A stretch of DNA of 50,405 nt, from UHGV virus genome UHGV-0169486. One strand, written 5' to 3'. Shown in pieces: positions 3,052-50,405 of this stretch. Made by a program: the position numbers and the translations under genes. Below the pieces are notes generated by a model, which saw only the letters and a list, made by a program, of their open reading frames with translations, made no database searches and was not told the origin of the DNA. This DNA comes from a virus. The stretch's first letter is position 1; each line of letters starts with the position of its first letter.

Positions 3052-3609
3052 ATGAGCATTGAACTTGAAACAAAAGTTATCAATATCCTTGAACTGGACT
3101 GCATCGCAACAATGCACCAGCTACGCCAGAAAACCGGATTATCAGCGAAATATGACGAAGCCGGATGTTTGCCTGAGACAATTAAACACTTGATTGATAC
3201 TGGTATTGTCGAGCGTGTATATACATATTTCGGACCGCGCCGCAGATTATTGGGGTATCGAATTAAATATTTGTATGCACAACGTCGTGATCGTGTGGCG
3301 GCGTTATTTAGTGACTACAGCGTTAAGAAGCGTATGCGTGACATTAGCGCGGAAACTGGTATCCCGTGGAATTACCTGTCGCGCACGCTGCGTTTAATGG
3401 TACTTGATGAAACGCTTTGCATAGACACCAAAAAACACGGCCTTAACTTTTACTCACTGTTTAAACCTGGGCGCTTTGGTCACGCTAATGATCTCGCGTT
3501 TGATTTTGACAGCCGCCTGAATGAATACCGGAAAAATAACGGCCTGTTACCGGATAAACCAGTATTTGAGATCGAAAAACTTAACGGTGAAACGGGGTTA
3601 GAATTATGA
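3052..3609 (+). CDS. hypothetical protein
   Basis: ORF track (3016..3609); ATG 3052 preferred over upstream GTG; same operon as helicase. Confidence 0.5.
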   Translation: MSIELETKVINILELDCIATMHQLRQKTGLSAKYDEAGCLPETIKHLIDTGIVERVYTYFGPRRRLLGYRIKYLYAQRRDRVAALFSDYSVKKRMRDISAETGIPWNYLSRTLRLMVLDETLCIDTKKHGLNFYSLFKPGRFGHANDLAFDFDSRLNEYRKNNGLLPDKPVFEIEKLNGETGLEL

Positions 3610-3812
3610 GACGGGTAATCTTTTATTCAGTTGAAACGTTTGTCGACGATACGCGCGTTTATTATCCGTGGGAAGTATACGACGCAAAGGTGTATACACC
3701 GCCACTGATGCGGAAATATAAACACGTAAAATTTAACCGGGTTTTTGTGCCAATGCACGATGCATTGCGGGCGCTGCGTGGGGAATTGCGAAACACAATG
3801 CGGATTGTGTAA
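3606..3812 (+). CDS. hypothetical protein
   Basis: ORF track; ATGA start/stop overlap with upstream gene. Confidence 0.5.
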   Translation: MRRVIFYSVETFVDDTRVYYPWEVYDAKVYTPPLMRKYKHVKFNRVFVPMHDALRALRGELRNTMRIV

Positions 3813-3821
3813 GGGGGAATT

Positions 3822-4019
3822 ATGGACAAGGATTTAGAATTGACCGTGGAGGATTTAAGCACGATCGCGGAATACATGCGCGGCGATGATCCTGATAAGC
3901 CTGTCACGGTTGATATGAAAAGATTAAAGGAAAAATACATGACAAGCTCGCGGCTAATTTCTTTGCAGGCGATTATGTATGCGCGTGCTATATGGCGAAA
4001 TAGTAACGGTGTATCATGA
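3822..4019 (+). CDS. hypothetical protein
   Basis: ORF track; RBS AAGGGGG upstream of ATG. Confidence 0.5.
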   Translation: MDKDLELTVEDLSTIAEYMRGDDPDKPVTVDMKRLKEKYMTSSRLISLQAIMYARAIWRNSNGVS

Positions 4020-4638: not shown

Positions 4639-5292
4639 ATGAATAAACTAAAAGCAATTGGCGTGATTAGCCATCGCACTAACCCTGAATGTTACCCATC
4701 GTTTGAGGTAACAACATGCCGCACAGAATATAATTTTGGATCATACTATTTATTGGGTGTCCGCGCTGACACTGGCGGCACTTATTCGGTTATGGCTGCA
4801 AGCTGGAAATTTGATAAATACGCTAATTTATCGAATAAGGATGATGACGGCATGAATAAAGAAAGTGAAATCATTGATGAATTAATCGAAGATGAACGCC
4901 ATGATTGCGAAACACAACAAGAAAAAACAGAATGGAAGCCAGGAGAAAAGCCGCCGTGCGGCGTGTGGCTTGATTGTTATTATCCTGATGGCTATTACAT
5001 TGGGATTGTAATGTTTAAGTTTATCGGTGATAAATACGGGGTATACACAGAAAAAGGCAGTATACAGAAAGAAAATGCTATTGAATGGGGTTTTTATAAT
5101 TATTATTTATACGTTGATCCGAAAGAAAAAGCACTGGCGCAAATTGCGTTTGCTCTGGCTACGAAGGTTATTGGTGAGGATGCGGCAGGAGAAATAAATT
5201 TCAATCGTGATAATGATTATTCGCGTGATTATCGCAATATGGCGCAAGCTATTATTGACGGATGTATCGGACACGTTGAATACACGGAATAA
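4639..5292 (+). CDS. hypothetical protein, AT-rich accessory gene
   Basis: ORF track (4624..5292); ATG 4639 with GAGGA RBS; AT-rich codon usage by eye; Cys-containing, no recognised domain. Confidence 0.55.
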   Translation: MNKLKAIGVISHRTNPECYPSFEVTTCRTEYNFGSYYLLGVRADTGGTYSVMAASWKFDKYANLSNKDDDGMNKESEIIDELIEDERHDCETQQEKTEWKPGEKPPCGVWLDCYYPDGYYIGIVMFKFIGDKYGVYTEKGSIQKENAIEWGFYNYYLYVDPKEKALAQIAFALATKVIGEDAAGEINFNRDNDYSRDYRNMAQAIIDGCIGHVEYTE

Positions 5293-5426
5293 TGGATAAA
5301 ACAGGGACAATCCTTCTTAGTCGCCCTGCCATCTGCCGGATGCTTGGTGGAATTAGCAGGGGAACATTTTATTTATGGCGTAAAAAATGGGAACGGAACG
5401 GAACTCCGTTCCCCTGTCTGGAATGA
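5292..5426 (+). CDS. AlpA-like small HTH protein (44 aa)
   Basis: Own translation MDKTGTILLSRPAICRMLGGISRGTFYLWRKKWERNGTPFPCLE; GISRGTFY..W....FP pattern typical of AlpA/excisionase-like HTH; TAATG coupling to upstream gene. Confidence 0.4.
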   Translation: MDKTGTILLSRPAICRMLGGISRGTFYLWRKKWERNGTPFPCLE

Positions 5427-46694: not shown

Positions 46695-47335
46695 TAGCTC
46701 ATCTCCACATTAAGCTCTGCGATCCGGATGTCATAAACATCTTTTGCTTTAACTCGATGTTCCGATCCTTCCGGCAGTAATTTCCAGCATTTACCGAATA
46801 TTTCACGCAACTTGTTAGCGTCCGGCGCTTTCGCTGCTGCATCACAGAAACGCGCTAACACTTCATCAGGATTTGGCGGCGCTTTCTGCTGCTGCTGTTG
46901 TTGTTTTGGCTGGTTTTTCTGCTGTCTAGGCTGCTGGCCTGTCTGCTTACTGTAAGCATCAGTATCCGCGTCTTTTGCATCGTCTATGCAGAATAAACCG
47001 TTCAAAGCATATTTCCGCGCGTAACTTGATGTTGCTCCTGTTAGCTGGCTTGCATCCATTCCCTTCTTATTATCTTCCTCCCTTGCGTAAGCAGTTACCG
47101 CTATCGCGTCCTCACCGTCACTTAGTGTCGCCGTAGCTTTCACGTAATAGCGTTCGCCAATTAAGACGATTTCATCACTTACCGTCAGAGTGATATTTTG
47201 AAGCAGTGGTTTAACAGCCTCTAAAATATCTTCTGCCGAACGATAATTATAACCGCCAAAATTATTGCGCTGACTTTTCGGCGCATTCAGCGTCTGCTGA
47301 ATAGTCCACAGCTTTTTATGTAATTCTGTTTTCAC
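46694..47335 (-). CDS. erf: ERF-family single-strand annealing recombinase
   Basis: Recalled similarity to P22 Erf (LNAPK, YRS.EDILE.VKPLL, DEIVLIG.RYYVKATAT, GATSSYARKY, DDAKDADT); GTG start with GAGGGAGA RBS. Confidence 0.85.
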   Translation of the reverse strand: MKTELHKKLWTIQQTLNAPKSQRNNFGGYNYRSAEDILEAVKPLLQNITLTVSDEIVLIGERYYVKATATLSDGEDAIAVTAYAREEDNKKGMDASQLTGATSSYARKYALNGLFCIDDAKDADTDAYSKQTGQQPRQQKNQPKQQQQQQKAPPNPDEVLARFCDAAAKAPDANKLREIFGKCWKLLPEGSEHRVKAKDVYDIRIAELNVEMS

Positions 47336-47454
47336 CCTTTAATCTCCCTCGCTGTTAACACTACATATAAAGCTTTATTCGCGGTGCTCCACATTTCGGC
47401 ATCGTGAAGCATTTCCGCTACAGCCAGTTTGAATTGAAGCGCCTGAACAACCAT
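47332..47454 (-). CDS. possible small protein (40 aa) coupled to erf
   Basis: Own translation MVVQALQFKLAVAEMLHDAEMWSTANKALYVVLTAREIKG; AAGGTGA RBS; stop overlaps erf start. Confidence 0.35.
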   Translation of the reverse strand: MVVQALQFKLAVAEMLHDAEMWSTANKALYVVLTAREIKG

Positions 47455-47484
47455 AATGTCACCTTTGAAAGTTTACATTTTGTA

Positions 47485-47775
47485 TTATCTGTAGCGTACT
47501 TTATCCAGGGGTTTTTCCCCTAGACTACGCGGTTGTGTTGCGTGGTAGTAATTGCCGCTTTCGTTTTCCGCATACCATTTTGCCGCACCTTTGCGATGCT
47601 CTTTAATGCCATTCGGTTTGCATCTTTCTACGTTTGCAAAACGAATAGCTTTATCAACATTGTCAGTTTTATTGATTGCAGGTGATGATTTTCTTTCGTT
47701 TTCTCTTTTTATTCTTCTGCGTTCCCTGGCATTTATTTTGCTATCACATTTGCCATACATAATTGTTACGGTCAT
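47485..47775 (-). CDS. N-like transcription antitermination protein (arginine-rich motif)
   Basis: First gene downstream of PL-like promoter and boxA/boxB; ARM-like NARERRRIKRENERK; AAGGAG RBS. Confidence 0.55.
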   Translation of the reverse strand: MTVTIMYGKCDSKINARERRRIKRENERKSSPAINKTDNVDKAIRFANVERCKPNGIKEHRKGAAKWYAENESGNYYHATQPRSLGEKPLDKVRYR

Positions 47776-47831
47776 AATCTGATCTCCTTATATCCCATGA
47801 TGATACTTAATAAAAATCATCTTCATTAATT

Positions 47832-47869
47832 GCCGCACTTCCAGCGGCTGACCAGATTGTTAAAGAGCA
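47832..47869 (-). promoter_or_regulatory. nutL-like site (boxA TGCTCTTTAACAA plus boxB-like hairpin)
   Basis: boxA matches recalled rrn/lambda boxA consensus; hairpin GCCGC-TGGAAGT-GCGGC; between PL-like promoter and N-like gene. Confidence 0.6.
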
Positions 47870-47911
47870 AGTAACCTTCTTTCCCCTGCCTTGCTACCTC
47901 CTTTGCCTCGA

Positions 47912-47940
47912 AATATACGCCCCGTGATACACCGAGTCAA
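47912..47940 (-). promoter_or_regulatory. PL-like sigma70 promoter
   Basis: TTGACT - 17 nt - TATATT on minus strand; TATCACG operator-like half-site within spacer. Confidence 0.65.
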
Positions 47941-48029
47941 TCCATTTTGTATACTTTTTTAAATATTTTATATGTCATTGATATTTAAATAATAAAACAC
48001 GTTTTATGTTTACGTTTTGGTGTTTTCAG

Positions 48030-48058
48030 GGCAAAGAAAAGCCGCCATTCGGCGGCTA
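48030..48058 (-). terminator. rho-independent terminator downstream of repressor gene
   Basis: GCCGCC-attc-GGCGGC hairpin with T-run on minus strand. Confidence 0.55.
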
Positions 48059-48063
48059 ATTTT

Positions 48064-48675
48064 TTATGGCAGGTTTACGATCTTCGCGTCCACCACCACG
48101 CCTATGATTTTCGATTCAGGATTCATGGGGATTGGTGGATACAGCGGGTTAAGCGAACGTAAAAGCCTTTGACCTCCATCAATAATCAACTGTTTAAACG
48201 TCGGTATTTGCCCTTCCTCAAGCTGTGCTATAACCAGCTTTCCATCGATAGCTGGCGCGTGTGGGTCAACAAGTATCATCGTCCCGGCAGGGATGCTCAA
48301 CCCCTGCGGCGCGTTCATTGATTCACCTTTAGCAACCAGCCAGTAACTATCATCTGAACAAATAACGCTAGTCGTAACGTGTGGTAATGTTGATCGCCTT
48401 GTATCTTCCATATTGTTTACTGTGTCCTTCCAGTCAACAACCGGGTAACTGCCTAAATCACGCTGCGGCGCTCCCGGTAACGTGTTAGAAACAGAATCAT
48501 CAATGACCATTCCATCATGGGTAACAGTGAACTGCCGACGACCAAGTGCCCGCATAATCCGCGCAATATCTTCAAGATTTGGCTCGCGGCGACCGTTAAG
48601 CCAGTGTGACAGGCCGCCTTTAGTTATCCCCATGAGATCCGCGAGTGAATCCTGGCTCATGCCTTGCGCTCGCAT
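48064..48675 (-). CDS. CI-like repressor (HTH plus LexA/S24 peptidase domain); 5' end possibly frameshifted
   Basis: HTH SQDSLADLMGITKGGLSHWLNG; S24 region with GESM and Lys; annotated ATG lacks RBS and truncates helix 1. Confidence 0.7.
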   Translation of the reverse strand: MRAQGMSQDSLADLMGITKGGLSHWLNGRREPNLEDIARIMRALGRRQFTVTHDGMVIDDSVSNTLPGAPQRDLGSYPVVDWKDTVNNMEDTRRSTLPHVTTSVICSDDSYWLVAKGESMNAPQGLSIPAGTMILVDPHAPAIDGKLVIAQLEEGQIPTFKQLIIDGGQRLLRSLNPLYPPIPMNPESKIIGVVVDAKIVNLP

Positions 48676-48874
48676 GAGCTGCTTTGCTAAGTCATACCAT
48701 TTGTTTTCATGTCGCTACCCTATAACCTCAAAAGTTTGATACAAGTCACAAAATGTATTTTTCAAAGCCTTGATTTAAAAACTCCATTCTGTAAACTTGC
48801 AGACAAGGTAAGGCCATAGTTGCAAAGACGCAAAAAAAAAGATAACGGAATAGCACAAAAAGGCGCATACCTCA

Positions 48875-48908
48875 TGCTCTTTAAAAATCCGGTGTCGCTG
48901 CGAAGCGA
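48875..48908 (+). promoter_or_regulatory. nutR-like site (boxA TGCTCTTTAAAAA plus hairpin TCGCT-GCGA-AGCGA)
   Basis: boxA-like sequence and tetraloop hairpin in PR leader, upstream of first rightward gene. Confidence 0.5.
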
Positions 48909-50328: not shown

Positions 50329-50405
50329 CTACCAAGCTTCACAAAAACCCAAAATAACCCACTTAAACGCTCCCCTAACGCGATAAAACATATCAAGTGC
50401 TATAC

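Follow-up and report, generated by a model that had tools for sequence, protein, structure and literature searches.

A gut coliphage of the mEp021 group with a frameshifted repressor gene and a deleted integrase, most likely a lytic-only descendant of a temperate phage

The repressor locus and its missing base

The window analysed here is the whole of a 50,405-nucleotide stretch of viral DNA (UHGV virus genome UHGV-0169486), and its immunity repressor gene is encoded on the minus strand (Table 1). The long reading frame of this gene runs from 48675 to 48064 and encodes 203 aa. The frame is open from 48714, its upstream limit being a TAG at 48717-48715, and between that stop and the ATG at 48675 it contains no ATG, GTG or TTG. 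An alternative ATG at 48710, with AGGG 5' of it, lies 35 nt upstream of the ATG at 48675, but in a frame that closes after seven codons (MKTNGMT) at a TAG (48689-48687), leaving a gap of 11 nt before ATG 48675. The minus strand thus reads ...GGTTATAGGGTAGCGAC ATG AAA ACA AAT GGT ATG ACT TAG CAAAGCAGCTC ATG CGA GCG CAA GGC ATG AGC CAG..., and one A added to the AAA run joins both frames to give MKTKWYDLAKQLMRAQGMSQDSL....

The two frames also differ in their translation signals. The predicted duplex energy for pairing with the 3' end of 16S rRNA is -6.4 kcal/mol at ATG 48710, -1.0 kcal/mol at ATG 48675 and -3.0 kcal/mol at ATG 48660, which is directly abutted by AAGG (the median for the first ATGs of the window's long ORFs is -6.15 kcal/mol). 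A Shine-Dalgarno sequence is present only at ATG 48710, and the downstream ATGs are without a usable one. A sequence-only reading of this DNA had proposed that the 5' end of the repressor gene is frameshifted, with ATG 48675 lacking a Shine-Dalgarno sequence and the upstream ATG, behind its AGGG, opening only MKTNGMT; all of these elements were seen on the minus strand.

Table 1. Positions of the features discussed in the text
Feature	Position	Strand	Remarks
Ancestral repressor start codon ATG	48708..48710	-	Out of frame with the gene body here; used in 55/55 relatives
Shine-Dalgarno-like AGGG for ATG 48710	48718..48721	-	Block GGTTATAGGGTAGCGA kept in nearly all of 31 upstream haplotypes
Lesion: AAA run, AAAA in every relative	48700..48702	-	One-base deletion within AAAACAAA(A), 48707-48700
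Residual seven-codon frame MKTNGMT and TAG stop	48687..48710	-	Minus-strand reading
Lambda-cI/P22-c2-type repressor gene body (HTH_3 and Peptidase_S24)	48064..48675	-	Readable from Met13 (203 aa) or Met18 (198 aa) only
Intrinsic terminator 3' of the repressor gene	48040..48057	-	Same site annotated as terminator in mEp phages
Control region upstream of the repressor gene	48728..48773	-	Two lineage-specific 1-nt indels, cancelling in length
Lineage-specific 1-nt deletion, T4 to T3	47957..47962	-	Some 20 nt 5' of the PL-like promoter that serves the N-like gene
ACA(A/G)AATGG motif	48782-48798, 48745-48760, 47940-47956	-	Candidate operator half-site for the repressor or a Cro-like protein
Truncated xis-like HTH gene	5292..5426	+	44 codons vs 72-76 in relatives; att-core sequence from codon 42
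Deletion junction and att core remnant, then P' arm	5411..5422	+	Window CCCCTGTCTGGA; prophage PAR core GTCCTGTCTGGA

Comparison with relatives identifies the lesion. All 55 related sequences, which comprise seven mEp021-group phages, E. coli prophages and 41 IMG/VR contigs (the latter retrieved by the wild-type pattern, and a few of the 55 being the same element twice), read AAAACAAAA where the window reads AAAACAAA. Likewise, in an alignment of the seven phages all have ATGAAAACAAAATGG and the window has ATGAAAACAAATGG. One A has been lost relative to every relative, in agreement with the single-base deletion that had been suggested. The first 20 residues of the repressor are identical in 55/55 relatives, and the protein is 215 aa long wherever the sequence is not cut by the end of the locus. 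The first 18 codons occur as 10 DNA haplotypes that differ only synonymously (at Leu8, Lys10, Gln11, Leu12, Arg14, Gln16 and Gly17), from which it follows that this stretch is translated in this frame and is subject to purifying selection.

The restored 215-aa protein is identical at 215/215 positions to E. coli WP_075842566.1, found in prophages of strains PAR, LSU61 and KKa019, which confirms the expectation that one added A would restore a complete HTH N-terminus. Against the repressors of the phage group, 207-215 of the 215 positions are identical. A chance pattern was also considered, and was rejected on account of the full-length match to prophage repressors and the presence of the extra A and an identical N-terminus in all of the relatives. 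One IMG/VR allele (L046) is the same at all 648 nt bar the missing A; the window gene carries no lineage-specific substitution, and the lesion is therefore very recent. No further decay is seen in the gene body.

The sequence-only reading had also allowed for a sequencing error, and an error of assembly is conceivable too; in either case the true genome would read AAAA and the repressor would be intact. The lesion is indeed a homopolymer-length change, and three more lineage-specific 1-nt homopolymer differences lie nearby (~47960, 48729-48734 and 48764-48766). However, a 4-base run is short for systematic error, and exact look-up of the 198-aa product led to the ENA assemblies ERZ654051, ERZ653397 and ERZ653495 and to the Logan assembly of SRR6054577. 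These four independent assemblies, from a sample series that may not all represent independent hosts or studies, are 100% identical to the window over the site, missing A included. Reported coverages among the four contigs are 9x, 53x and 23x, and in one of the four a single SNP relative to the window, at another position, identifies a separate assembly.

A genome-wide frameshift check, based on the annotated CDSs of prophage KKa019 and a listing of indels, gives the same answer. The ~80 genes held in common with KKa019 at high identity are all intact in one frame, for example those for the terminase (492 aa, 99%), the protein at the portal position (457 aa, 99%), the tape measure protein and the helicase. 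Of the remaining uncompensated 1-nt indels, those inspected are intergenic, as one would expect if the variation is real and has passed through selection. This excludes an assembly that is error-prone in general, and it is not credible that four assemblies should share a lone error, so that we reject the error explanation, which we consider highly improbable.

The exact 198-aa product is found on 7 contigs, compared with more than 1,900 contigs carrying 215-aa forms in the same protein cluster. Exact-pattern scans of IMG/VR, JGI metagenome contigs and GTDB species representatives gave no match to the mutant allele, and exact-protein look-ups of the 203-aa and 44-aa products gave no match. Another member of the same 90% cluster, protein P0130 (5 contigs, the longest of 55,331 bp), is a 207-aa repressor from a different lineage of the group, with a frameshifted C-terminus, which ends ...PESKNHWRGC as opposed to ...PESKIIGVVVDAKIVNLP. 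This hints at recurrent repressor-disrupting frameshifts in the phage group.

Changes are also seen in the DNA that surrounds the gene. From 46,892 to 48,698 (1.8 kb) the window is otherwise identical to allele L046, and the changes are therefore concentrated in control DNA. Upstream of the repressor gene a T5 run has become T4 (48729-48734) and an extra T is present at 48764-48766, both unique to the lineage; together these turn TCAA-N5-TTGA and TCAA-N3-TTGA into two TCAA-N4-TTGA palindromes. The extra T sits at the centre of an imperfect ~46-bp palindrome, the arms of which carry ACA(A/G)AATG. These control-region indels may be neutral, or may be vir-like adjustments.

Copies of the motif ACA(A/G)AATGG, in both orientations, are seen within the OR-like region and beside the -35 element (TTGACT) of the PL-like promoter. 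Also in the OR-like region, a C-to-T change at 48826-48834 (minus strand) makes the T6CT2 of relatives an uninterrupted T9 run, unique to the window lineage among 31 haplotypes and situated upstream of a conserved TTGC-N6-GCAA palindrome. A promoter scan found no sigma-70 consensus in the intergenic region between the repressor and the early rightward genes, where manual PRM- and PR-like assignments are ambiguous, and the operators of the phage group are apparently not defined in its description (PMC11893012).

The repressor protein and its authentic start

The A-restored protein has Pfam matches to HTH_3 (E = 4.9e-13) and to Peptidase_S24 (PF00717, E = 3.6e-19), and its Ser-Lys dyad, Ser131 (within G-x-S-M) and Lys173, is invariant across 35 homologues. 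The top solved homologue is lambda cI (3BDN, E = 4e-57); structures of the lambda cI C-terminal domain match at E = 1e-48, and N-terminal domains of P22 c2 match too. With lambda cI and P22 c2 the window repressor has in common both its architecture, an N-terminal HTH_3 domain followed by an S24 autopeptidase domain, and its map position between a PL-nut-N-like leftward unit and the rightward early operon. The S24/oligomerisation C-terminal domain that characterises this class is present in the window. A complete N-terminal HTH domain (helices 1-5) read from the gene's own start is absent, the longest readable product beginning at residue 13.

The lost residues can be placed on an AlphaFold model of the 215-aa form (mean pLDDT 86.5), in which helix 1 spans residues 5-16, helix 2 residues 20-27 and helix 3, the recognition helix, residues 31-38. 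A product starting at Met13 keeps four residues of helix 1 and lacks eight, one starting at Met18 lacks all 12, and both are without the lysine arm. As had been supposed, the part cut off includes helix 1 of the HTH domain, together with the N-terminal arm. Arm and helix 1 are found in all 35 homologues, which extend down to 35% identity and include P22 c2-like proteins, with at least 14 residues ahead of the invariant Gln20 and a conserved W-x-x-L-A-K-x-x-M-K helix. By analogy with lambda cI and P22 c2, a truncated product deprived of the Lys-rich arm and of most or all of helix 1 would be expected to be unable to bind operators.

A different view would be that the gene is functional as it stands, the product from Met13 (ATG 48675) or Met18 (ATG 48660) being normal or sufficient. 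No damage is seen in the gene body, the product predicted by gene callers is 198 aa long and matches HTH_3 and S24, and the GenBank entry of mEp021 itself (L001, MH706966.1; positions 1802 vs 1853) annotates the repressor from Met18 as a protein of 198 aa. However, in mEp021 DNA the upstream ATG is in frame and conserved, and the clone that confers immunity, pRep021, was made with the forward primer ccggaattcATGAAAACAAAATGGTATGACTTAGC, i.e. from the upstream ATG with four A's (PMC11893012 supplement). The experimentally active clone therefore begins at Met1. It is the 215-aa Rep021 for which superinfection immunity has been demonstrated experimentally, and its authors propose that DNA is contacted by a two-lysine arm (PMC11893012). 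The Met18 start in the mEp021 GenBank record conflicts with the authors' own functional clone, and is thus an annotation inconsistency.

Relatives whose repressor starts at the downstream ATG, which would have spoken against a frameshift, were looked for; the Met18 start of mEp021 is a matter of annotation, as its DNA has the upstream ATG in frame and the functional clone begins there. Purifying selection on codons 1-17, with synonymous variation only in the 55 relatives, retention of arm and helix 1 in 35/35 distant homologues, the lack of a usable Shine-Dalgarno sequence at the downstream ATGs and the loss of eight or all 12 residues of helix 1 also argue against a sufficient short product, which we regard as quite unlikely.

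The phage genome and the loss of its integrase

The repressor region is 88-95% identical to that of the mEp021-group E. coli phages (mEp021, mEp010, mEp013, mEp044, mEp515, mEp554 and MagusPhagus), and the whole window is colinear with phages of this group at 83-92% nucleotide identity. Matching prophages are present in 35 of 5426 complete E. coli genomes. The mEp021 group, also called mEpimmI, consists of Nus-dependent, temperate, non-lambdoid phages with one shared immunity, and comprises mEp021, mEp010, mEp013, mEp044, mEp515 and mEp554 together with 38 prophages and 4 metagenome phages (PMC11893012). The N-like Gp17 of the window is 100% identical to that of KKa019, and boxA/boxB nut sites are present. 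Colinearity, the group-specific repressor and Gp17 with its nut sites all place the genome within mEpimmI. The tyrosine integrase and attP that go with the temperate character of the group are lacking.

BoxA-like sequences (TGCTCTTTAA(A/C)AA), each followed by a boxB-like hairpin, lie at 48875-48908 on the plus strand and 47869-47830 on the minus strand and point away from the immunity region; their counterparts in mEp021 are the published nut sites nutL and nutR1 (PMC11893012). At 3606-4013 a gene for a 137-aa hypothetical protein of KKa019 (83% identity) is broken by a stop, and is represented by two small genes in MagusPhagus. This is a variable region and not obviously a lesion.

The metagenome contig NODE_12_length_50460 crosses the ends of the window, with position 1 continuous into position 50405, and its length equals 50,405 + 55, consistent with a terminal 55-mer overlap. 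From this continuity it follows that the 50,405 bp of the window make up an entire circular genome, rather than a prophage embedded in a chromosome. Members of mEpimmI are 53-55 kb in size, whereas the window genome, at 50.4 kb, is ~3-4 kb shorter. The described members all have an integrase and are temperate, unlike the window genome, which has no integrase and, among the group, is the only one with a frameshifted repressor.

Indeed, integrase is reported in all 48 mEpimmI members (PMC11893012), and a tblastn comparison of the relatives' integrase with the window found nothing at E < 0.8, leaving no integrase remnants; nor do the ORFs neighbouring the deletion junction contain a recombinase domain. 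At the junction the xis-like gene matches its relatives for 41 codons (...GTPFP) and then ends in CLE*. The sequence continues CCTGTCTGGA ATGATTA..., i.e. into the att core (TCCAGACAGGAC in prophage PAR, on the other strand) and then the P' arm. Missing to the left of the core is ~1.44 kb of ancestral DNA, comprising the 3' part of xis, the whole integrase gene and the P (left) arm of attP. The same junction is present, 100% identical, in the Logan assemblies of SRR5165992, SRR6054577 and SRR6054582.

One endpoint of the deletion lies no more than 2 nt from the edge of the 12-bp att core, and this position suggests an Int-mediated event. In lambda, att-anchored deletions of the b2 type arise through Int recombination between attP and a secondary site. 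They have an endpoint at the edge of the att core, as is the case here, but in the lambda b2 deletion it is the b region that is lost and int is kept, whereas the deletion in the window runs the other way and has lost int itself. A putative secondary site in xis has only ~6/12 matches to the att core. The deleted integrase, a lesion absent from the sequence-only reading, lends independent support to the idea put forward there of a passage from temperate to virulent life.

Probable loss of lysogeny: explanation, alternatives and significance

Two lesions are thus seen, both absent from all relatives and both reproducible across assemblies, and the residues lost from the repressor have been placed structurally. 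Both have become fixed in the lineage, which is represented by several assemblies. We consider it likely, at a probability of roughly 0.8, that this complete circular genome belongs to a coliphage of the mEp021 (mEpimmI) group in which the apparatus for lysogeny has been inactivated by two lesions and which is now lytic-only. A recent one-base deletion in the 4-A run at codons 3-4 has shifted the gene body out of frame relative to its ribosome-binding site and start codon, so that full-length 215-aa repressor would not be made; at most, re-initiation after the seven-codon frame could yield an N-truncated protein from Met13 or Met18. The ~1.4-kb deletion ending at the att core has in turn taken away the integrase, together with the P arm of attP and half of the xis-like gene. 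With the repressor start out of frame and the integrase deleted, the phage should therefore be unable to lysogenise, neither establishing nor maintaining lysogeny, and would propagate lytically. Judging from the genotype, then, repressor function would be lost and the lifestyle would be lytic-only, and the most likely view of this gut E. coli phage is that it descends from a temperate phage and has become lytic-only in nature.

Some full-length repressor might in principle still be made by recoding, if the ribosome shifted by -1 or the polymerase slipped in the A-tract. Wherever in codons 1-7 a -1 shift took place, the product would be identical to the ancestral protein, and the -1 frame is open from 48714. 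Against this, AUG AAA ACA AAU GGU lacks a slippery heptamer of the X XXY YYZ type and offers the P-site tRNA no possibility of re-pairing, while the 55 relatives carry a plain single in-frame gene with no sign of an evolved signal; the slippery heptamer and the conserved two-frame arrangement of a programmed -1 frameshift site are both missing. Efficient polymerase slippage needs A runs of 8 or more, and the runs here, of 4 and 3, fall far below that. Recoding of either kind is accordingly very improbable.

What the truncated product itself might do bears on a further proposal, which is compatible with the main explanation. Re-initiation 11 nt past the short frame could give appreciable amounts of truncated protein, and since the gene body shows no further decay this product may retain a function. 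It could act as a dominant-negative anti-repressor, its C-terminal oligomerisation/S24 domain poisoning the repressor of a resident mEpimmI prophage. The C-terminal domain is fully intact, the stop of the short frame lies at a distance from ATG 48675 that favours re-initiation, and the lineage-specific indels cluster in control regions. However, the absence of decay is equally explained by a recent lesion, and with target prophages in so few complete E. coli genomes (35/5426) selection to overcome homo-immunity would be weak, which makes an anti-repressor role unlikely. A fuller version, in which the seven-codon frame would feed re-initiation at Met13 to give a fragment dead in DNA binding but with its oligomerisation domain intact, and in which this fragment, combined with the lineage-specific 1-bp changes in OR- and OL-like control DNA, would make the phage a natural 'vir plus anti-repressor' type, is likewise unlikely; if true, E. 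coli with mEpimmI prophages could be induced by this phage or could support its growth.

For a phage that has lost lysogeny by two lesions, as we favour here, parallels are available, and the kind of event is well known from cI clear-plaque mutants and from mycobacteriophage D29. Clear plaques arise, in the textbook case, from a null lesion in the repressor gene. The classical c mutants of lambda and P22 were selected in the laboratory, whereas the window lesion is natural and belongs to a metagenome-assembled lineage known from its genotype alone; it also differs from them in that the gene body is spared and the loss is confined to helix 1, the arm and the start of translation. In D29 the repressor was lost via a multi-kb deletion and the integrase was kept, while in the window phage a 1-nt frameshift affects the repressor and it is the integrase that has been deleted. 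As is proposed for the window phage, D29 and other Cluster A 'ex-temperate' lytic phages are described as recognisably recent derivatives of a temperate parent via lost immunity functions (PMC5712189, PMC6550527).

The lesion in the window is hidden by automated annotation, in which gene callers give a 198-aa 'LexA-like repressor', and lifestyle predictors would probably call this phage temperate. The case shows how a widespread temperate gut coliphage group can give rise to a lytic-only lineage via two small lesions, here at single-base resolution and with the intact allele still in public data, and the lineage so formed persists in several metagenomic samples. As a natural non-lysogenising variant, it could be a handy start for studying or applying mEpimmI phages without lysogeny.
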